Origin: Candidatus Heimdallarchaeota archaeon
GTDB taxonomy: Archaea; Asgardarchaeota; Heimdallarchaeia; Heimdallarchaeales; Heimdallarchaeaceae
Direction of reading: 5' to 3'
Length of the DNA: 24,000 nt
NCBI GenBank assembly: GCA_019057375.1
Contig: DXJF01000097.1
Span: forward strand, 48,101-72,100
The position numbers were made by a program, and so were the translations under genes. Below, one piece after another: positions 402-21,674 of this stretch (positions are counted from its first letter, which is position 1; every line of letters starts with the position of its first letter). The notes under the pieces were generated by a model that worked only from the letters and a program-made list of their open reading frames with translations, was not told the DNA's origin and did no database searches.

Positions 402-1307
402 TTACAATCTTAGTTTTTCATGGCTTATTTTTACTGGCTCATTAGCTAAATCTGCTCTCTTGTTAACATCTATGTAATCAACATAAAAAACAGTACCTTC
501 TACATTGGTAAATGGTCCAATCTCGACTTTGAGACCTTTAACATCGCCGTCTACATTGGTATTAGCCAAATAAACTTCCCCAGTACCTAAAACATGCCCT
601 TCAATTATTGATTTCTTAAGAGATCGAAATCTTAGACCAAGGAAATCCTTTCCTTTATTGATAAGAATATCATCGCCTACTAAATCACCTTCGACCATAA
701 TTCGTCCAGCCGCTTCAACAATTCCTTGAGATAATAGGTTACCTTCAATTCTAGCAGAACCTGAAAATTTTGCTCCGCTTTCAGCTTGTAAAAGTCCTCC
801 AGTAGTAAAACTACCAGCTGCTACAATTCTGCCTTTGAGAATAGTTTCTAAGCCTACTTTTGTAGAACCTGCGAATTTTGCATCTTGATCTCCATGTAAG
901 AAACCAGCGCACTTAAAAGATCCAGCAGTATTGATGTCTCCATGGGCAGTAATGCTACCATTACTCTTTAGGGAACCAGCAGATTTCAAGTTGTTACATT
1001 CAACATCATTTTCAATTTTTCCAGAACCTGCGATGCGAATATCCTTTCCAACATACCCTCCTGAGATTTTAGTTGATCCAGCAACTGATAGAGATTTATC
1101 AGTTGATACCTTAACTCCTGAAGTATAAATCTGAGAAGCTTCTTTGTGTTGTTCAAAATTTTCTTTAGCATCATCAAGCTTTTGGAGATAACGTTCTTTT
1201 AATTCAACATAGTTTTGTTTATCGATTTCTCCTTTGTCAAACCTCTTTTCCAAGAGTTCTAATAATTCTTCATACATTTTGACTTCGTTTTTAGACAATT
1301 GTATCAC
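402..1307 (-). CDS. Bactofilin-like polymer-forming cytoskeletal protein with an N-terminal SHOCT-like coiled region
   Basis: 301-aa ORF. The N-terminus ELLEKRFDKGEIDKQNYVELKERYLQKL resembles SHOCT-type helices. The remainder is repeated xGSxKxxGxIxxxGDIxxAGS / VEGDLVGDDILI / VEGTVFYVDYIDV units typical of bactofilin beta-helix proteins. Confidence 0.6.
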   Translation of the reverse strand: MIQLSKNEVKMYEELLELLEKRFDKGEIDKQNYVELKERYLQKLDDAKENFEQHKEASQIYTSGVKVSTDKSLSVAGSTKISGGYVGKDIRIAGSGKIENDVECNNLKSAGSLKSNGSITAHGDINTAGSFKCAGFLHGDQDAKFAGSTKVGLETILKGRIVAAGSFTTGGLLQAESGAKFSGSARIEGNLLSQGIVEAAGRIMVEGDLVGDDILINKGKDFLGLRFRSLKKSIIEGHVLGTGEVYLANTNVDGDVKGLKVEIGPFTNVEGTVFYVDYIDVNKRADLANEPVKISHEKLRL

Positions 1308-1465: not shown

Positions 1466-1507
1466 TGGTGCGGGGAGGGAGATTCGAACTCCCGAACCAC
1501 TAAGGAA
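1466..1507 (-). repeat. tRNA-Leu(UAA) 3'-end fragment (CCA, acceptor 3' strand, T-arm, variable arm); distal att-like direct repeat
   Basis: tggtgcggggagggagattcgaactcccga is identical over the first 30 nt to 6073-6102 of the intact tRNA gene. The next 12 nt (accactaaggaa vs actactaaagaa) have 2 mismatches. Similarity then degrades at about 1508. Confidence 0.85.
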
Positions 1508-1525
1508 AGGTGTTTTTTTATCGTG

Positions 1526-1533
1526 TTTAAATA
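1526..1533 (+). promoter_or_regulatory. Possible archaeal TATA box for a leaderless TnpB-like transcript
   Basis: tttaaata is centred about 26 nt upstream of the first ATG (1556) of the ORF, which is the spacing expected for archaeal TATA-to-TSS and a leaderless mRNA. AT-rich background makes this weak. Confidence 0.25.
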
Positions 1534-1555
1534 TCAAATTACAGATATAAAAGTG

Positions 1556-3481
1556 ATGAATTCTGTGCTTGTAAAAGATCTCGAAGAAGAAAAGGAAGTT
1601 CAAAAAACCTATTCCTTAGTTCTTAGATTTCAAAATCTAGCACAAAGAAAAGAAGCTAACCATCGAGTCAGCGATTTAGAAGATAAACAATCACTATTAC
1701 TATATGATACTTCTACTCAAAAAATTGCAAGAGATTTAGCTCGCGAAAATCCAAATGTTTCATTTCCTATTTCTAAAATCCAAAAATCTTCGAGGAGCAG
1801 TTCAAATATCTCTTTCAGTGCTTATAATTGGTTGTTTGCAGCATCAAAAGTGTCTGTTGATAAGGAAAAGAAAGTAGCTGATTTATTCCAGTTTCTGTTA
1901 CAAAATCCACAGCAAGCAATTGAATGGGTGATTCTTGGACGTTCTCCCTATACTGAAATTTCTCTTTCGAAGAAATGGAGAGTAGATTATGTATATGTTA
2001 TAAATCTCTTGACAAGTACTAGACGAAAAACTAACACTTATTGGAAAAAGAATTTTACTATGAGCTTTAAAGAAAAGCAACTAGAGTTCAATTCAAAGCT
2101 TCCAAAGACAACACAATTTGAAGTTGAACAAGCAATACAAGACTGCTATGAAGTAAAGGTAGAAGAGTATGCAAAATTGAAGAAAACTACTGAAAAACAA
2201 TATACTTTTCTTGATAAATTAGCTTTGGTAGTGAAACATAAGTATGTTATAGCTCCATATGTAACTTCTTGGATTAATCTTTCTCAAAAAGCTCGGTGGA
2301 AAAGCTTAAAGCAACTGAGTAAACAACTTGCTGAAACGATTGGTCAAATCAATGAAAAACTCCATTCTACAATAAGATTGATAGTAGTTTTTGCACTCTT
2401 CTCAAAACTGTGGGGGACTGTATCTAAATTAATTGATTCAACTAATCCAGAAGAAGTTGTAAGTTCTCCGTTTGAAAGAAAAAAAGCGAATTTACCAATT
2501 AAAATGTTAATGAAACATGAATATGACATAATTCGACCTGGTAACTCTCAAAAGATGACACAACTTGCTAAAGAACAAGGATGCTTTGAACTTGGATTTC
2601 CATGTAAAGGAAAAAAAAGAATAACAGGTAATCTTCTGTTTACAGAAAAAATTATCGAATATCTGAAAAATGGTGCTAGTGTAAGAATCTTACAAATTAA
2701 AAGTGGAAAAGCTCCTAACTACAAACCCAAGATTTCAGTTGTTCTTCATGGTACTCCTAGCATGTTTGTGAGCACCAAACTAGCACAAAAATATGCTAAC
2801 AGTATGAATCTCACTGCTGCTAATATCTTAGGGCTAGATGTCAATAGAGTAGGAAAACACATGTTGTCGTTCTCTAATGAAGTTCCATTGGATTCTAGAT
2901 TGAGATCTTTATCAAACCATTACCTCTCCTTAACAAGAAAAGAAATTCCAAGATTGAGTAACTCACTAAAAACTAAAGGTAAGCAAAAAGATAGTTATGG
3001 TTATATTAAAACAAAGGGTGAGCTAAATAGGATATATAACAAAAGAACTAATATAATTAAGGAAATTAAGAGAATAATACCACATTACATTGCGGGAGTT
3101 ATTATCAAGAGTAAGTGTAAATTTTTTTGTATAGAAGAGTTTCGTAAGAATCCAAGAGGGAAAAGAGGTGCATTAGCAAAAGCAATATACAACATGCCTT
3201 ACGAAGACAATATTTTTGAAAAAGCAGTCCAGATTGCGACTCACATTCTTAGTTATAAAGTGAAACTTGTATATGTAAGTGCTCGTAACACAAGTAAATA
3301 TCATTATAGTTGTAGAGGTGTGATTCAAAGAGATCTTAAAAATTATGATTATGCTCTCTGTAAAAAATGTGGTGAACGAGTAAATACACATATTAATGCT
3401 GCTAAAAACATTGCGAAGAAAGGAGAAACAATAATAAAGCAAATCAAGCTTCCCCTAGACGCCGCTAAGGGGACGGGGTAA
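1556..3481 (+). CDS. Large TnpB/Cas12-like RuvC-fold protein (putative RNA-guided effector) with a non-canonical RuvC-III motif
   Basis: ORF track 1523..3481 starts at a GTG; the first ATG is 1556. The C-terminal core contains ILGLDVN (RuvC-I), FFCIEEF (RuvC-II), ARNTSKYHYSC...CKKCG (zinc finger) and NTHINAAKNI (RuvC-III signature xxDxNAAxNI, with His in place of Asp). About 430 aa precede RuvC-I. Confidence 0.75.
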   Translation: MNSVLVKDLEEEKEVQKTYSLVLRFQNLAQRKEANHRVSDLEDKQSLLLYDTSTQKIARDLARENPNVSFPISKIQKSSRSSSNISFSAYNWLFAASKVSVDKEKKVADLFQFLLQNPQQAIEWVILGRSPYTEISLSKKWRVDYVYVINLLTSTRRKTNTYWKKNFTMSFKEKQLEFNSKLPKTTQFEVEQAIQDCYEVKVEEYAKLKKTTEKQYTFLDKLALVVKHKYVIAPYVTSWINLSQKARWKSLKQLSKQLAETIGQINEKLHSTIRLIVVFALFSKLWGTVSKLIDSTNPEEVVSSPFERKKANLPIKMLMKHEYDIIRPGNSQKMTQLAKEQGCFELGFPCKGKKRITGNLLFTEKIIEYLKNGASVRILQIKSGKAPNYKPKISVVLHGTPSMFVSTKLAQKYANSMNLTAANILGLDVNRVGKHMLSFSNEVPLDSRLRSLSNHYLSLTRKEIPRLSNSLKTKGKQKDSYGYIKTKGELNRIYNKRTNIIKEIKRIIPHYIAGVIIKSKCKFFCIEEFRKNPRGKRGALAKAIYNMPYEDNIFEKAVQIATHILSYKVKLVYVSARNTSKYHYSCRGVIQRDLKNYDYALCKKCGERVNTHINAAKNIAKKGETIIKQIKLPLDAAKGTG

Positions 3482-3546
3482 ATAAACCCCTCAAGTAAAC
3501 CTAAAGTTTCTACGAGAACCTAGTAAACTTCATTACGTGCGTGGAA
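3440..3546 (+). ncRNA. Candidate omega-RNA/reRNA-like scaffold overlapping the 3' end of the TnpB-like ORF
   Basis: Four G4/C4 tracts lie within 40 nt in an AT-rich context. Hairpin 1 is cccctag(3452-3458)/ctaagggg(3465-3472). Hairpin 2 is gggg(3475-3478)/cccc(3487-3490) and spans the stop codon (3479-3481). The position is analogous to TnpB omega-RNAs. There is no expression evidence. Confidence 0.2.
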
Positions 3547-3558
3547 CGGATGACTTAT
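3543..3558 (-). repeat. Short tRNA-Leu-derived fragment (anticodon-stem 3' strand plus intron start)
   Basis: ggaacggatgacttat compared with copy 2 ggaacggatttcttat (3649-3664) gives 14/16 matches, including a 9-nt exact core. Confidence 0.5.
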
Positions 3559-3610
3559 TATTTTAATAAATAATAGTTAGCTTAGATAAGAAAAATAGAT
3601 TTGAAAAAAT

Positions 3611-3714
3611 TGGTGCGGAGAGGGAGATTCGAACTCCCGAACTACAAAGGAACGGATTTCTTATCTATTCTCTAACCCTTATCTTAGGTTTAAAACTAAG
3701 ATCTTAAGTCCACC
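3611..3714 (-). repeat. Truncated tRNA-Leu(UAA) copy (3' exon, intron, anticodon loop and 5' anticodon-stem strand; no D-arm or 5' acceptor); att-like direct repeat
   Basis: It aligns column by column with 6073-6176 of the intact gene. The exon part has about 3 mismatches in 47 nt. The intron part has about 10 mismatches plus a 1-nt indel in 44 nt. It diverges completely after tcc(a/g)cc. The acceptor 3' strand is mutated (TCTCCGC). Confidence 0.85.
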
Positions 3715-3760
3715 TTGAAACATAAAAGTATTAAAGGTTTAAAAGACAAAATAGGATTAA

Positions 3761-4639
3761 ATGTCTAGTAAAAATTGGGACACTGTAATAGAGTTACTAG
3801 AAACAATCACGCCCTCATATTACTTAGAAAAGGAGCTTAAAGCTACATTCAAATCTAATCTCCAATATAGAATAGGAAAATACTCTGAGAATTGTCGATA
3901 TTTCTTTCAGGAAGGTTTCGAAAAAAAATATTCAAATATTATTCCATCAGCAATAATTGTACCAAGGAAGTCAGGAACTAATATAAGCAAAATCGCAAAT
4001 GAAGCTGTTATATATTTTAAACAAAGCTTGGAATTGTTTAAAACATTGGATAACGTTGAAGAAAATGTGAGTCCATTATTGGAATATTATGGATTATTAC
4101 AATGTGTTAAGGGAGTAGTAATTTTAGAATTAGATGTGAAAAGTGACAAGATATTTAGTAAGCATGGTTTAACTCAAGAAACAAGATTTCATTCAAAAAT
4201 AGATGAACCAAAATCAACAAAAAAATATAAACTAAAAATGATTAAGAGAATTAAGCCATCAAAATATATCAACGCTAAAATTATGCCTTATGGTGTTTTA
4301 ACATCTTTAATCATTCGTTTCACAGATCATTATGATGAACTTTATTCTGACAGAGACATATACAAAATAAGTAAGCATTCTATGGATAAATACGTAACAG
4401 GATACTATAGACCTTCATTAGAAGAAATAACAACCAATCATCATGTAGATCCAATAATTGCTTTCATAGGTTCTTGGATGTTATCAACATTGGTAAGATA
4501 TAAAGCAAAAATGTGGCAAGAAATATGTTTGGGAGAAAAAGATGACATAATAAATAATATTAGAAAATTTAGGAGGGAAAAAATACCTAAAGCAGTAGAA
4601 ACTATGCTAATGGATTATGTAAGAAAGAGCTCTTGGTAA
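3761..4639 (+). CDS. YaaC-like protein (uncharacterised family)
   Basis: 292 aa. The blocks KYSENCRYFFQEG, SPLLEYYGLLQCVKGVVIL, SKHGL and LSTLVRYKAKMWQEI parallel, in the same order, the blocks I recall from B. subtilis YaaC (NCYRFLYYLEHG, PVLLFYGLSQLIKACLL, AHGV, ICRYETEWWSEL). The comparison is from memory. Confidence 0.5.
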   Translation: MSSKNWDTVIELLETITPSYYLEKELKATFKSNLQYRIGKYSENCRYFFQEGFEKKYSNIIPSAIIVPRKSGTNISKIANEAVIYFKQSLELFKTLDNVEENVSPLLEYYGLLQCVKGVVILELDVKSDKIFSKHGLTQETRFHSKIDEPKSTKKYKLKMIKRIKPSKYINAKIMPYGVLTSLIIRFTDHYDELYSDRDIYKISKHSMDKYVTGYYRPSLEEITTNHHVDPIIAFIGSWMLSTLVRYKAKMWQEICLGEKDDIINNIRKFRREKIPKAVETMLMDYVRKSSW

Positions 4640-4721
4640 CAGCTTAAAGAGTATTCATAAGTACTACAAAAGCTTAAAAAATAATGAATGAAAAAGGAAG
4701 GAGAGAAAGGAGGGGAGACAA

Positions 4722-6065
4722 GTGCAAGAGGATAATAGCGAAAATTTAGCTGAGCCAATAGGAATTAAAGAATTAGGAAAGAGAATAATTCTTCTCCCTT
4801 ATCACATTATAAGGCTCATAGTAAATAATGTTTTACTATTTATTTTAGGAAGTATAGAAAATGGAGTAATAATTGTAAGAGCAAAAAAAAGTATCAAGAT
4901 TGAAGAAGGAATAAAAAAACTCATACAGGAAAACGAATGTATTCTAAGAAAAAGTATCTACTTAAAGAAAAACGATAGTATAGACGAGATTAAACCAGAA
5001 GAGGAAGAAGAGCAAGAAGTAAAACGAATAAATGTTTTGAATAGAATAATGGCTATAGTAGTAATTTCAATAGTTTGGTCGTTTCAAATTGTGTTGAGAG
5101 TCATAGTTTGGATATTTATCTTGATTAATTGTTTAACCATTAGAAAGAAAGTAGGTTTAAAGGAGTGGGAAGAGAATAATTTGGGATATTACAGAGAAAC
5201 CATAAAATATCTTACAGGTATTAGTGAAGAAATACCTTTTTGGAAAGAATTAGGTGGTTGGGGCGAAGGTTTATTATTTATATTAGTATTTGATTTGGTT
5301 GTTATTAGGAATGGATTCTTAAGATTGTGTAGGATAATTCTTGGAGATACTTACAGTTATTATTTGATTATTTCGTTAGTATATATCATAATTTTCGTAA
5401 TTCTTATACCAAAATATCTGAAGTTTCCAAGTAAAAGTGGGGAAAGGAAAACTAAGCAAATAGTAAGAAGAATAGGAGTAAAAAAACCAAAAAGTATAGC
5501 AAGGACTCTCTTAATTGTGATTCTACTATTAGCAATTAAATTAGGAATTATTTATGGAATATCCTTGCTAATAGATTATAATGTAGAAAATTTTATTTTC
5601 CCAGTAAATACAGGTTATATAATTGCAGTAAGTATGAGTGCAGGTATTGCTGAAGAAATAATATACAGGGGATATGTAATAGAAGTAACAAAAAGAAAAT
5701 ATGGAACTTTAGTAACTATGATAATTTCAGGGTGTCTTTTTGGACTTGCACATTTTGCGCTTAATCCATCCATTTATAGTTTTGTTCAGATGTTGTTCGT
5801 AACCTTTATAGGAATAACATATGCGTATTTCAGAATTCTATCAGATTCATTGATAGGACCAATAGTCATGCACACAATATATGACATAATTGTACTATCA
5901 GTAGTATATACAACAGAAAAAATACCTGATTATGTCGTGTATTTGATAGCAATTACATTGAGTATTATAATAACAATAATTTCAATTAATTTGCTGAAAC
6001 TAATATACAAAGACAAAGAACTATTGATATTTAAGAAAAGAGGGAAAGAACAGAAGGAAGGATAA
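4722..6065 (+). CDS. Polytopic membrane protein with a C-terminal CPBP (CAAX protease / bacteriocin-processing, Abi) intramembrane metalloprotease domain
   Basis: 447 aa with a GTG start preceded by the purine-rich aggaggggag. There are many hydrophobic segments. The three CPBP motifs occur in order: AEEIIYRGY (EExxxR), LFGLAHF (FxxxH) and MHTIYD (HxxxD/N). Confidence 0.7.
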   Translation: MQEDNSENLAEPIGIKELGKRIILLPYHIIRLIVNNVLLFILGSIENGVIIVRAKKSIKIEEGIKKLIQENECILRKSIYLKKNDSIDEIKPEEEEEQEVKRINVLNRIMAIVVISIVWSFQIVLRVIVWIFILINCLTIRKKVGLKEWEENNLGYYRETIKYLTGISEEIPFWKELGGWGEGLLFILVFDLVVIRNGFLRLCRIILGDTYSYYLIISLVYIIIFVILIPKYLKFPSKSGERKTKQIVRRIGVKKPKSIARTLLIVILLLAIKLGIIYGISLLIDYNVENFIFPVNTGYIIAVSMSAGIAEEIIYRGYVIEVTKRKYGTLVTMIISGCLFGLAHFALNPSIYSFVQMLFVTFIGITYAYFRILSDSLIGPIVMHTIYDIIVLSVVYTTEKIPDYVVYLIAITLSIIITIISINLLKLIYKDKELLIFKKRGKEQKEG

Positions 6066-6072
6066 AGGAAAA

Positions 6073-6201
6073 TGGTGCGGGGAGGGAGATTCGAACTCCC
6101 GAACTACTAAAGAACGGATGGCTCATCTGACTTCTAACCCTTATCTTAGGCATAAACCAAGATCTTAAGTCCGCCGCCGTTGGCCACTTGGCTATCCCCG
6201 C
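6073..6201 (-). tRNA. tRNA-Leu(UAA), class II, with a 44-nt intron at the canonical 37/38 position and encoded CCA
   Basis: Hand-folded. Acceptor GCGGGGA/TCCCCGC; D-stem GCC/GGC with an 11-nt loop; anticodon stem GCGGA/TCCGT; loop CT-TAA-G[intron 6120-6163]A; 13-nt variable region; T-arm GGGAG-TTCGAAT-CTCCC; discriminator A; CCA at 6075-6073. Confidence 0.85.
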
Positions 6202-6285: not shown

Positions 6286-7599
6286 TCATGGATGGAGTCT
6301 TGTTGGATCTCTTGGTAGTAATCTCGCTTCTCTAATATTAGGTAAATCAAGGATCTTTTGCACAAATCTTTCAATTCCTGTACCACTTCCTCCATGTGGA
6401 GGTGCTCCATTTCTAAAGAACTGCAGATAACTGTCAACCTCTTCAAGCTTGAAATCCTTTTCAACAGCTTGCTTGGCTAAAATATCTACTCTGTGTTCTC
6501 TTTGTCCTCCAGTGGTTAATTCTTGTCCTTTGAATAAGAGATCAAAAGATTTTGTCAATCTTGGATCTTCATCATCCTTCATAGTATAGAATGGTCTAAT
6601 TTTCCAAGGATATTGGTCTACGAATACAAAGTCTGAATTCCATTTCTCTTTTGCATACCTACCAATTATTCCCTCTGCTTCAGCGTCTAAATCTTCATAG
6701 AGGTCTAGTTCTTTTCCTTCACTTGCTAAAACTTCATTACATTCAGGAATTGTAATTATTGGCCATTCTTTGGGTTGATCATCAATTTGAACTCCCAATA
6801 CTTCAAGAGAATTAGCTCTAGATGTTTTTATTGTTTTGAGAGCAAAACCAATTGCGCCTTGTATTACTTTCATGACATCTTTTTGATCATTAATGTATGA
6901 AATCTCAAAATCTATAGAAGTATATTCGCATAAATGACGATTAGTGTGGTGTTTCTCAGCTCTAAAAACAGGCCCTATTTCAAAAACTCTTTCAAATCCT
7001 GCCATTAACATCATTTGTTTATAGAATTGAGGGGATTGTGCTAAGTATGCTTTTTTATCAAAATAATTTATTTCAAAAACACTAGCGCCACTTTCTGTTG
7101 CTGAACCAACAATTTTAGCTGAAAAGAACTGTAAGAAGTCGTTATCTCTAAAATATTGTTGAATTGCATAAGCAGCAGTACTCTCAATTTCGAAAATGTG
7201 AGCAATCTTTTTATCTCTTAAATCTAGAAACCTATAATCGTATCTCTTATCAGGATTTGTTTCAATCTTATCACCAACTGAAATTGGATATTCTTGAGCT
7301 CTTTTATTGATAATTTCAATCTCAGACGGAAGGATTTCCTTTCCATTTGGGGCACTTTCATTGGTTACGACATTTCCAGTAACTGCAATTATATCTCCTT
7401 CTTGAAAATCTAAAGCAAATATCTCTTCAGATACTTTCTTTTTGGGTAAAACTATTTGTACAATCCCTGTTCTATCTTGTAATTGAATGAATCGTAATCC
7501 TCCAAGATTGCGAACTTGTTGAACCCATCCTGCAATCGATATCTTTTCACCTGTTGTAGAAAAAACCTTCTCAATAGGATTTCTTTGACTAAAGTCCAT
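6286..7599 (-). CDS. aspS: Aspartyl-tRNA synthetase, archaeal/eukaryal type
   Basis: 437 aa. It has an N-terminal OB-fold-like region, class II motif 2 FRAEKHHTNRHLCEYTSIDFE, and motif 3 GGSGTGIERF. Confidence 0.9.
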   Translation of the reverse strand: MDFSQRNPIEKVFSTTGEKISIAGWVQQVRNLGGLRFIQLQDRTGIVQIVLPKKKVSEEIFALDFQEGDIIAVTGNVVTNESAPNGKEILPSEIEIINKRAQEYPISVGDKIETNPDKRYDYRFLDLRDKKIAHIFEIESTAAYAIQQYFRDNDFLQFFSAKIVGSATESGASVFEINYFDKKAYLAQSPQFYKQMMLMAGFERVFEIGPVFRAEKHHTNRHLCEYTSIDFEISYINDQKDVMKVIQGAIGFALKTIKTSRANSLEVLGVQIDDQPKEWPIITIPECNEVLASEGKELDLYEDLDAEAEGIIGRYAKEKWNSDFVFVDQYPWKIRPFYTMKDDEDPRLTKSFDLLFKGQELTTGGQREHRVDILAKQAVEKDFKLEEVDSYLQFFRNGAPPHGGSGTGIERFVQKILDLPNIREARLLPRDPTRLHP

Positions 7600-11557: not shown

Positions 11558-11667
11558 TGGTGGGGCATAGCAGATTTGAACTGCCGACCCCCCGGTTTTT
11601 GAGTTAAATGCTTAACAAACAAATAACATATCAGCCGAGTGCTCTAACCAAGCTGAGCTAATGCCCC
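11558..11667 (-). tRNA. tRNA-Ile(GAU) with a 32-nt intron at 37/38 and encoded CCA
   Basis: Hand-folded. Acceptor GGGGCAT/ATGCCCC; D-arm GCTC-AGCTTGGTTA-GAGC; anticodon stem CTCGG/CCGGG (one G.U); loop CT-GAT-A[intron 11597-11628]A; variable GGGTC; T-arm GGCAG-TTCAAAT-CTGCT; discriminator A; CCA at 11560-11558. Confidence 0.85.
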
Positions 11668-20286: not shown

Positions 20287-21204
20287 TCATTTCTTCTTGG
20301 ACTTTTCTTTTGGTTTTTCTTCCACCTTATCTTCTTTCTTTGGTTTAGAAGCTTTATCGTCTTTCTTTGGTTTTTCTTCTACCTTATCTTCTTTCTTTGG
20401 TTTAGAAGCTTTATCAACTTCTTCCAGTTCTTCAAACTCGTCTTTAGGTTTCTTCTTTTTCTTCTTACTCTCTTCTTCTGTGATTTTTTCGAGTTCTTCA
20501 TCGATATCTGGAAACTCTTCTAATTCTTCAATAACTTCTTCGCTAACTTCTTCGATGATTTCAGGTTCTTCTTCTATACCAGTATCCACTATCATGGATG
20601 TTGAAGTTGGTTCAGCTTCAATAGTAATGTCATCCGGTAAAATTGCATCGCCTCTCATGATTCGAACTTGAACCCCTATTAATCCTCGTCGTATGAGGGC
20701 TGTTGCTTTTCCTAAATCGACATATCGCTCTGCAGGGTCTCCTGCCTTTGCAACAAAACCAGCTCTGAATGTTTCAACTCTTGCTCTTTGACTAGTGATT
20801 TTTCCACTAATCTTTATTTCAATACCTTTGGCTCCAACTGACAATATACGTCTAATTATACCATGAGCGCTTCTACGAAAATGACGTCCCCTCTCTAAAG
20901 AAGATGCTAAACGATAAGCCATAATACGGGCATCAAGTTCTGGATTTTCTACTTCGGTTACTTCAATTTGTGGATTATCTAACTCGTATTGCTCGCGTAA
21001 AGCTTCAGTGATCCTGTGGATGTTTCTTCCTCTTCCCCCAATCGCTAATCCTACTCTCCCCACTCTAAGAATAACACGATCTCCCAAAGGTGTTCTTCTA
21101 AGTTCAACCCCACCATATTCAGCATTTTTCAACTCCTCAGCTAAATATTCATCAATTGCATTTCTTTGGTATTTTTTTAATAGATAGTCTTTTGTTGTAG
21201 GCAT
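20287..21204 (-). CDS. rps3: Ribosomal protein uS3 with a roughly 100-aa acidic-then-lysine-rich C-terminal extension
   Basis: The ORF track starts at GTG 21213; the ATG at 21204 lies 5 nt after the uL22 stop. KH-domain core RVGLAIGGRGRNIHRITEALR. The C-terminus ends ...DKASKPKKEDKVEEKPKKDDKASKPKKEDKVEEKPKEKSKKK. Confidence 0.9.
   Translation of the reverse strand: MPTTKDYLLKKYQRNAIDEYLAEELKNAEYGGVELRRTPLGDRVILRVGRVGLAIGGRGRNIHRITEALREQYELDNPQIEVTEVENPELDARIMAYRLASSLERGRHFRRSAHGIIRRILSVGAKGIEIKISGKITSQRARVETFRAGFVAKAGDPAERYVDLGKATALIRRGLIGVQVRIMRGDAILPDDITIEAEPTSTSMIVDTGIEEEPEIIEEVSEEVIEELEEFPDIDEELEKITEEESKKKKKKPKDEFEELEEVDKASKPKKEDKVEEKPKKDDKASKPKKEDKVEEKPKEKSKKK
20302..20415 (-). repeat. 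Two tandem 57-nt (19-codon) repeats inside the uS3 C-terminal tail
   Basis: ggtttttcttc(c/t)accttatcttctttctttggtttagaagctttatc occurs at 20312-20358 and again at 20369-20415 (offset 57 nt). It encodes DKASKPKKEDKVEEKPK(K/E) twice. Confidence 0.85.
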
Positions 21205-21209
21205 AATTA

Positions 21210-21674
21210 TCACATCTCAGCTACTTCTGCTACTAATTCAACATGGATGAATTGTCTCATTTTAGGTGAAGAACTTCCATGAGCTCGGTAAAACATACCT
21301 TGTTGTCTTGTTCCTTGTAGAGTTACAGCATGAGTAATCCTACATTTATCTAACTGTAATTGATTATTTTCAGCATTGTTTTCTAGATTTCTTACAACTT
21401 TAAGAATCTCTGTTGCAGCTTTTACAGGATATCTGCCACCTGTCCAACCAACTACGCTACTTTTGTGTCCTACATTATTTTTGAATCGTCTATATGGGAC
21501 TGCAAGTTTTTTATCAATTACAGCCTCAAGATACTCAATAGATTGATGAATTGTCATACCCTTAATTGTGTTACAAACTTCGCGAGCTGCCTTTCTACTA
21601 ACATCTATACCTCTTGCAGAGGCTTTGGCTGATCTGTCAGGATCTGTTTGAACTGAATATTTGTATTTTGGCAA
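21210..21674 (-). CDS. rpl22: Ribosomal protein uL22
   Basis: 154 aa. AKASARGIDVSRKAAREVCNTIKGM...AVPYRRF...GRYPVKAA...LLKVVRNLENNAE, in the conserved position upstream of uS3. Confidence 0.9.
   Translation of the reverse strand: MPKYKYSVQTDPDRSAKASARGIDVSRKAAREVCNTIKGMTIHQSIEYLEAVIDKKLAVPYRRFKNNVGHKSSVVGWTGGRYPVKAATEILKVVRNLENNAENNQLQLDKCRITHAVTLQGTRQQGMFYRAHGSSSPKMRQFIHVELVAEVAEM

Follow-up and report, generated by a model that had tools for sequence, protein, structure and literature searches.

A tnpA-less IS607-family TnpB/omegaRNA module with a putative guide to foreign tRNA-Leu alleles at a polymorphic tRNA flank in Heimdallarchaeota

The 24-kb stretch of a Heimdallarchaeota metagenome-assembled genome (MAG) analysed here, referred to as the window, contains an intact tRNA-Leu(UAA) gene followed by two small islets, A and B, each closed by a partial copy of the same tRNA. 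The locus is real and more structured than first described. Islet B is, as read from its sequence, a tnpA-less IS607-family TnpB/omegaRNA module, which a preliminary description of the window overlooked, and directly after its scaffold lies a fourth tRNA-derived piece of 22 nt (3543-3564), absent from that description. The piece is antisense to tRNA-Leu(UAA) alleles of related genomes and mismatches the resident allele. We put at roughly 45% the probability that this arrangement reflects guided homing or retention, in which an RNA-guided module would be aimed at foreign tRNA alleles. tRNA genes are classic landing sites for integrase-bearing elements, and TnpB is known as the retention nuclease of its own transposon.

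The Rfam tRNA model gave 44.2 bits at 6076-6201 (minus strand). The anticodon loop, which carries an insert of 47 nt, reads CUUAAGA and thereby identifies the gene as tRNA-Leu(UAA); with its encoded CCA it spans 6073-6201 (minus strand), and its intron is approximately 44 to 47 nt long. ARAGORN reported no tRNA in the window, and tRNA-Leu(UAA) was seen by Rfam only. A repeat search returned a three-copy direct family (1462-1549, 3607-3694, and 6069-6156), with a continuation in which 3693-3714 is paired with 6154-6175. When the tRNA was compared with the window by BLAST, 3611-3714 matched at 86% over 101 nt (E = 1e-17) and 1466-1507 at 97% over 38 nt (E = 1.5e-13). The copy at 1466-1507 matches tRNA-Leu at 44 of 45 positions, a score reached by 0 of 2000 shuffles, and its homology to the tRNA may extend to approximately 1512. 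The repeats are far above chance expectation, and Rfam, the repeat search, and BLAST together confirm the earlier placement of the intact tRNA at 6073-6201 and of its 3' part at 3611-3714 and 1466-1507. The 104-nt copy at 3611-3714 is a separate, foreign tRNA-Leu allele. The order is intact tRNA, cassette A, 104-nt tRNA copy, spacer, 22-nt tRNA piece, TnpB module, 42-nt tRNA copy, and chromosomal flank, and the features of the locus are as follows.

402 to 1307, minus strand: bactofilin-like gene (Pfam Bactofilin), the conserved distal chromosomal flank, which comes directly after tRNA-Leu in the related loci L002, L003, and L013
1466 to 1507, minus strand: 42-nt copy of the tRNA-Leu 3' end, comprising most of exon 2 plus CCA, of the CCTTAGTGG allele
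1508 to 3542, plus strand: TnpB module, tnpA-less and of the IS607 family (promoter, TnpB-like gene, and omegaRNA scaffold)
3423 to 3542, plus strand: omegaRNA-like scaffold, overlapping the 3' end of the TnpB-like open reading frame (ORF) and terminating in ...TTCATTACGTGCGT
3543 to 3564, plus strand: putative guide segment GGAACGGATGACTTATTATTTT, antisense of the exon-2 start and intron 3' end of a non-resident tRNA-Leu(UAA) allele
3565 to 3610, no strand: AT-rich spacer with T-runs, read from the sequence
3611 to 3714, minus strand: 104-nt tRNA-Leu copy, covering the tRNA from the anticodon-stem 5' strand, across the intron, as far as CCA
3761 to 4639, plus strand: YaaC-like gene of islet A (Pfam YaaC, 3.9e-14)
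4722 to 6065, plus strand: CPBP/Rce1-like intramembrane protease gene of islet A, with a DUF4389 N-terminal part (Pfam, NCBIfam)
6073 to 6201, minus strand: intact tRNA-Leu(UAA) with intron (Rfam, 44.2 bits)
6286 to 7599, minus strand: aspartyl-tRNA synthetase (AspRS) gene (Pfam), the conserved proximal flank

The interval holds the three genes that had been described, encoding TnpB-like (Cas12f1-like_TNB), YaaC-like, and CPBP/Rce1-like proteins; all remaining ORFs of at least 50 aa are antisense within these three. The reported lack of a recombinase likewise stood: Pfam searches found none in the 24-kb window, where the other genes are housekeeping genes, and tblastn with IS607 TnpA gave no match there. 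An assembly artefact is excluded by a second public assembly (L078), which agrees with this one at 100% identity across 9.9 kb. Elsewhere in the window, at 11561-11667 (minus strand), Rfam identified a second intron-bearing tRNA (52 bits; 33-nt insert), also absent from the ARAGORN output; its anticodon loop, CUGAUA, was read as Ile(GAU).

Twenty syntenic loci with AspRS were retrieved, all from Heimdallarchaeota or Asgard MAGs. In L002, L003, and L013, whose AspRS is 96 to 98% identical to that of the window, AspRS is followed by the tRNA, approximately 160 nt, and the bactofilin gene, which represents an empty site; many loci that are more distant show it as well. These 160 nt correspond to the window sequence beyond the distal repeat (1466), so the intervening 4.6 kb is accessory, as expected of the genuine insertion bounded by tRNA 3' repeats that had been proposed. 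L001 (AspRS, 97%) is a variant site: its tRNA and a 42-nt repeat (L001:13548-13589) enclose a single unrelated gene, SBP_bac_5, which is encoded on the other strand from the tRNA; this repeat and window 1466-1507 start at the identical position in the tRNA, and the cassettes that they close are unrelated. Empty and variant sites, whose absence would have spoken against the preliminary description, thus both exist, and the arrangement is not uniform among relatives. In L005, a small YdeI/OmdA-family gene lies between tRNA-Leu and bactofilin (L005:4965-5866). No clear tRNA repeat accompanies it, and the gene may represent an older cassette that has lost its repeat to decay. The L004 contig (AspRS, 95%) ends inside tRNA-Leu(UAA), at nt 41 (L004:6258-6298), where intron alleles start to diverge, and heterogeneity of the population at this point probably broke the assembly. 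L007, L012, and L019 have no tRNA-Leu after AspRS and are hence uninformative. The site is a polymorphic tRNA-flank hotspot.

The TnpB-like ORF of islet B ends with a stop codon at 3481 and comprises 652 aa counted from GTG 1523. Its true start is probably ATG 1556; a TATA-like TTTAAATA is found at 1526-1533, approximately 26 nt ahead of that codon. The protein scores 27.6 bits with PF07282, matches NF040570 and NF038280 weakly, and gives a profile match to CnCas12f1 (1.3e-07). An AlphaFold 2 model (mean predicted local distance difference test score, 83.6) gave structure matches to Cas12f, Cas12h, CasX, Fanzor2, and TnpB. The RuvC-like domain and the zinc-ribbon (TNB) domain that are features of TnpB are both present, and the N-terminal ∼400 aa have no sequence-family matches. 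We found 53 full-length homologues, at 41 to 62% identity; those with a source name are all from Asgard archaea, and the contexts fetched are Heimdall-type loci. No conserved partner gene was found beside the homologues in the contexts of 12 members. The link to IS607 is visible in L081, in which an IS607 serine transposase (NF033518, 1.6e-48; a MerR-HTH/resolvase TnpA) lies directly upstream of a 43%-identical homologue; C-terminal tnpA fragments are kept in L077 and L041, and other copies have decayed upstream remnants. Neither a left-end segment nor a tnpA remnant was found in the three tRNA-Leu-linked modules (window, L021, and L072). Such modules cannot persist via transposition, and a transposase-independent means of persistence is needed; the module of islet B is stranded.

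The 3' part of the gene overlaps a scaffold that is conserved in 12 loci at a protein identity of 41 to 62%. It consists of a hairpin (CCCCT...AGGGG), a second, covarying hairpin, and a terminal motif, TTCATnnCGTG(C/T)G(T/C), where similarity ends. RNAalifold predicted 17 pairs, 8 of them with compensatory changes; by itself, the scaffold did not give a significant minimum free energy fold (z = -0.9), and the predicted structure thus draws its support only from covariation. A covariance model recovered just these 12 TnpB-linked copies in 0.72 Mb. Two comparisons locate the right end of the element. Homology between L045 (occupied) and L026 (empty) starts exactly at the scaffold end, and L006 differs from L005 by a clean 2155-nt insertion that replaces 4 nt, with no duplication. 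From these junctions, the scaffold end is the right end of the element and the next nucleotide is the guide position; in characterised TnpB systems, too, the guide comes directly after the scaffold (PMC8612924). GG(AA) occurs at both sides of the module in the window, and GG is the crossover/insertion dinucleotide reported for IS607 (PMC6188088); several other right junctions are without GG.

The 22-nt segment at the guide position is antisense to 9 nt at the start of exon 2 and 13 nt at the end of the intron in tRNA-Leu(UAA). It matches the L050 allele at 17/17 positions, the allele of L005, L006, and L051 at 16/16, and that of L003 and L013 at 20/21; the L013/L050-type target reads ACTAA followed by GGAACGGATGACTTATT.... 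At the equivalent site of the intact tRNA in the window (6111-6132), 7 of 20 positions mismatch, 2 of them within the first 12, and the differences lie in the intron part. The segment has no match in the 104-nt copy, and no other site in the window lies within 3 mismatches. The resident allele is common to L001 and L002 across the guide-target region, and L002 differs in the 5' part of the intron. None of the genomes that match the guide has a module at this tRNA-Leu site. Another family member is present in the L013 genome; that member (L077) is 44% identical and lies elsewhere in the same MAG, with a non-tRNA flank and a tnpA remnant.

The guide piece and the distal copy at 1466-1507 belong to the same allele type (CCTTAGTGG) and adjoin each other in tRNA coordinates, with 4 overlapping nt, GGAA, among them the GG dinucleotide reported for IS607 crossover. 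The earlier reading of the locus as two tandem integrase footprints therefore holds for an insertion with repeats and was too simple for islet B, which appears as an IS607-derived module inside a tRNA-Leu 3' fragment. The suggestion that a TnpB-like ribonucleoprotein acts at the site has gained specific evidence in the conserved omegaRNA scaffold and the tRNA-Leu guide. A homing endonuclease has its recognition site in alleles that lack its gene and an altered site in the resident allele; both are found here, at the sequence level only.

The two other tRNA-Leu modules repeat this pattern. The proteins of the three are 60 to 62% identical, and the AspRS of the window and L072 hosts are 78% identical. 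In L021 and L072, a decayed or absent exon-2 fragment is followed by the module, a 16- to 19-nt tRNA piece, an AT-rich spacer, and intact tRNA-Leu; L072 adjoins AspRS, as in the window. The L021 guide matches the L040/L064 allele at 19/19 positions, and the L072 guide matches the L021 tRNA allele at 16/16 and is close to the allele of the 104-nt copy in the window; each differs from its own resident tRNA. The three spacers are mutually unalignable, that at 3565-3610 aligning with neither L021 nor L072. The exon-2 fragment to the left of the module has decayed in L021 (19 of 28 columns match, ∼68%; 46 of 2000 shuffles reach the score) and was undetectable in L072. All three modules retain, next to the scaffold, 16 to 22 nt with near-perfect matches to extant tRNA alleles. 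Since these have been kept while spacers and exon-2 fragments decayed, we infer that the guide is under constraint and functional. The T-runs of the window spacer are possibly a guide-RNA terminator.

Two further members are linked to other tRNAs. The right flank of L075 is antisense to nt 37-1 of a foreign tRNA-Val(CAC) allele; it matches the resident tRNA-Val at 31 of 40 columns (0 of 2000 shuffles reach the score), and an intact tRNA-Val lies approximately 100 nt from the other end of the element. We considered a giant intron or split tRNA at L075 and rejected it, as no pairing is possible between the 5' half beside the element (GGGGCAG...) and the acceptor 3' strand of the adjacent tRNA-Val. 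This truncated 5' half is adjoined by an HgcG-like H/ACA RNA match (L075:8085-8371, minus strand; 42 bits, against a gathering score of 77). In L022, the right flank is antisense to the 5' end of a foreign tRNA-Ser(GCU) plus its upstream flank, with an intact tRNA-Ser on the opposite side. Downstream of that guide, at L022:6940-7110, are 5S rRNA-like pieces in permuted order (3'-like part before 5'-like part), with no Rfam match at E ≤ 1. By a count made by eye over the first 12 and first 20 nt, the five tRNA-linked members mismatch their intact resident tRNAs at 2/7, 1/5, 3/4, 1/5, and 3/6 positions.

Right flanks are thus antisense tRNA pieces in 5 of the 14 members with known flanks (Leu in three, Val, and Ser). 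The transposase does not account for this excess, since only minimal target specificity is reported for the IS607 enzymes (PMC4058570, PMC6188088). tRNA-directed guides that mismatch the resident allele recur in the family and appear to be undescribed in the literature searched. The passive alternative, which we regard as rather unlikely, is that a tRNA fragment of attR type had been left behind, that an ordinary IS607 insertion sequence (IS) subsequently inserted into it and lost tnpA, and that the guide is mere flank. The guide position equals the right flank by construction, and other family members are decaying IS copies, as this alternative would have it. It has to reconcile the minimal specificity of IS607 with the tRNA share of right flanks and with three diverged modules at one tRNA position, and it leaves a perfect guide piece beside decayed neutral sequence.

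Passive insertion is one half of a larger explanation, whose other half concerns the cassettes. Islet A has a GC content of 28%, compared with 34 to 36%, and its 3-mer distance exceeds that of all 52 control windows (52/52), so the k-mer comparison with the flanks that had been proposed marks it as deviant. Its genes are complete, with gaps of 46 nt and 7 nt to the repeats, the CPBP stop codon lying 7 nt from the tRNA CCA end. YaaC-like homologues are rare (3 found). The YaaC-like protein and its variable partner may be an uncharacterised defence-type pair; a PADLOC defence-system search gave no match for YaaC-like, CPBP, or SBP. The nearest YaaC-like homologue (47%; L079:392-3132) has an RNase HII-like protein of 508 aa as its neighbour, and DUF4145 and DUF6602 genes lie close by. 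The covariance model shows no orphan scaffolds near cassette A or the L001 cassette, which rules out a TnpB relic concealed in either of them.

A single crossover that joins a circular DNA with a tRNA-Leu 3' arm to the tRNA gene would yield the repeat geometry seen for A, for the L001 cassette, and for the whole B unit. Either homologous recombination or an integrase in trans could bring such a crossover about, and islet A may have been mobilised in trans. A tRNA-Leu-specific recombinase encoded elsewhere may have inserted every cassette (A, the SBP gene of L001, and a small former element of which the spacer is left) in the manner of cis-mobilizable elements (CIMEs). Direct repeats of a tRNA 3' end with downstream cargo are the classic footprint of such integration, attP-borne tRNA pieces are normally of foreign alleles, and elements of Heimdallarchaea are known to integrate at tRNA genes via integrases (PMC8813620); the shared start of the window and L001 fragments, with unrelated cargo, points the same way. 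The att-like flanks of CIMEs are present and the recombination and transfer genes absent, and no helper was seen at the site in the 20 related loci. No such integrase was found, nor was an attP-bearing element with the 31-nt tRNA-Leu 3' core: the core had 0 matches in viral contigs, and among 47 metagenome matches (5 at contig or locus edges and unjudged) all those with readable upstream sequence were read as tRNA-Leu genes of several isoacceptors, and neither an attP-like copy nor a new pair of repeats was among them. Simple integration cannot, moreover, produce the inverted arrangement of L022. We consider integration in trans a possible but doubtful source of the cassettes.

The preliminary description also envisaged stripped remnants of larger elements. 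On this view, internal deletions deprived integrated viruses or plasmids of their integrase and of most other genes, and the islets are what was left. Persisting repeats around tiny cargo (2.1 and 2.4 kb), the foreign composition of islet A, and YaaC-like partner genes that resemble defence-island content would fit this origin. No positive evidence for it emerged. At least three independent cassettes (A, B, and L001) consist of complete genes only, with their own promoters and 7 to 57 nt from the repeats, and contain no pseudogene or integrase fragment; B is bounded as a defined TnpB/omegaRNA unit. No larger, integrase-bearing version of either islet was found in the contexts of 12 TnpB-like and 2 YaaC-like homologues, and no recombinase was found beside 12 other family members. 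We regard a remnant origin as improbable. Two further readings were rejected, an integron-like one for want of IntI and attC-like structure and an SSV-type split integrase for want of partial ORFs that enter the repeats; both rejections are based on the complete genes being spaced 7 to 57 nt from the repeats.

RuvC residues D439 and E538 of the TnpB-like protein are invariant or nearly so in the family, and the third catalytic position, in RuvC-III, is H623 in every aligned member that covers the region; the motif is NTHxNAAxNI in the family and NADYNAARNI in CnCas12f1, so the canonical D-E-D triad is not present. A published survey considers branches with a conserved D-to-H substitution in RuvC probably active (PMC10691335). 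If the histidine allows DNA binding only, the module may be a regulator or a "site guard"; a guard would block or mark tRNA-Leu-like sequences of incoming competitors, for example, attP sites with foreign intron alleles like that of the 104-nt copy. The substitution is family-wide, inactivated TnpB/Cas12 relatives (Cas12k, Cas12m, and others) repress via an RNA guide or direct transposition (PMC10691335), and the L072 guide is near the allele of the 104-nt copy. Retention of the RuvC-I Asp and the RuvC-II Glu, the presumed activity of D-to-H branches, the lack of a conserved partner gene, and the otherwise IS-like behaviour of family members argue against a non-cutting binder; a host regulatory role is unlikely, as the guide has no target in the host window. 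We think a non-cutting binder, whether regulator or site guard, improbable.

Guided homing, by comparison, could work as follows. The TnpB-like ribonucleoprotein would recognise, and probably cut, sensitive tRNA-Leu alleles met after strain-to-strain DNA exchange or in a heterozygous polyploid cell. Recombinational repair from the occupied chromosome would fill the empty site with the resistant tRNA allele, the intervening cargo, the module, and the distal tRNA fragment. The tRNA repeats would serve as homology arms and one tRNA copy would stay intact, so that an integrase in cis would be unnecessary. The process would resemble the "intronless homing" of free-standing homing endonucleases, and a role for TnpB as a homing endonuclease on vacant sites has been described (10.1101/2023.11.20.567912; PMC8612924). 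Islet A and the L001 SBP cassette would be cargo that entered the same repeat-bounded site, either through a single crossover at a tRNA-like arm that they carried themselves or with the help of an integrase in trans, and later hitch-hiked. Only copies with a guide to a strain-conserved sequence, such as a tRNA gene, would spread between genomes by cleavage and recombinational copying, and they would be tolerated solely beside a mismatched, intact tRNA.

Several points weigh against guided homing. The family-wide Asp-to-His change in RuvC-III makes nuclease activity uncertain, and guided cleavage and guide-RNA expression are predictions. A right flank that equals the guide is automatic for a TnpB landing in a tRNA fragment, so the match alone is no proof of trans-targeting, and no common target-adjacent motif (TAM) was readable from four target sites. 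Cassette A and the L001 cassette share the repeat architecture without TnpB or scaffold; the common fragment boundary of L001 and the window is unexplained by guided homing and would fit a site-specific recombinase with a fixed att site. Deletion between the repeats could also create empty sites. The sample, three tRNA-Leu modules and 14 members with known flanks, is small.

More tentative still is the general proposal that an Asgard-specific, IS607-derived TnpB/omegaRNA lineage forms a transposase-independent, RNA-guided tRNA-gene homing system. Such a system would keep a resistant allele beside a guide against sensitive alleles, discriminate between them by the variable intron or other polymorphisms, and spread via break-induced gene conversion, dragging cassettes along.

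Known systems share parts of this picture. As in the IS607 family, there is a homologue with canonical TnpA upstream (L081), a TnpB/Cas12f fold with a zinc ribbon, an omegaRNA scaffold that overlaps the gene 3' end and stops at the junction of element and flank, a clean insertion without duplication (L006 versus L005), and GG at both window junctions (PMC6188088). In contrast to that family, the window copy is without tnpA and a recognisable left end, has His for Asp in RuvC-III, and encodes a protein of ∼650 aa whose ∼400-aa N-terminal part is without family matches, and the tRNA-linked copies are not simple insertions and always lie beside an intact tRNA of another allele. TnpB homing or retention in ISDra2 (IS200/IS605) and in IS607 IStrons shares the guide directly 3' of the scaffold, equal to the right-end flank, and the proposed role of vacant-site cleavage followed by recombinational copying. 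The proposed targets here, however, are essential tRNA alleles in other genomes and not the excised donor site; excision is unlikely, since there is no transposase or left end, and the resident copy is apparently protected via intron polymorphism.

Free-standing homing endonucleases such as SegB of phage T4, which cuts tRNA genes, likewise pair a nuclease gene beside a conserved gene with a recognition site in alleles that lack the nuclease gene and a resident allele that differs, and flanking markers would be co-converted; here, recognition by a guide RNA is proposed, the host is archaeal, and the system is known from sequence alone. In Type V-K CRISPR-associated transposons, a TnpB descendant, Cas12k, uses a fixed tRNA-complementary homing guide to place the element beside a tRNA. 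Unlike those transposons, the locus has no TnsB, TnsC, or TniQ genes (none was found in the window or beside homologues), no CRISPR repeat, and no transposon ends, and its geometry includes tRNA 3' duplications. Tandem tRNA islands and CIMEs share the intact tRNA, cargo, and partial 3' repeats in tandem, the lack of an internal recombination module, and empty sites; the present locus differs in that no cognate integrase or helper was identified, the cassettes have one or two genes, and one carries an RNA-guided module directed toward the same tRNA.

One observation lies apart from the tRNA-Leu site. A 57-nt tandem duplication (91% identical) at 20309-20422 of the window falls in the Lys/Glu-rich C-terminal tail of ORF 20287-21213 (minus strand), which was read as a ribosomal protein gene from its translation alone.

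If the passive and trans-integrase explanation holds, the module is an ordinary decayed IS within an ordinary tRNA island. If guided homing is true, the module would connect tRNA landing sites with TnpB retention, as a counterpart in nature of a homing endonuclease that is guided by RNA, and small cassettes would gather at tRNA flanks without an integrase, making these flanks integrase-free cargo hotspots. The activity, TAM, and guide rules would also be relevant to the transition from TnpB to Fanzor and Cas12 and to genome-editing tools. tRNA introns would be under diversifying selection as an escape from RNA-guided cleavage, and the old proposal of Randau and Soll that introns shield the tRNA genes of archaea against mobile elements (reviewed in PMC4090602) would become testable.

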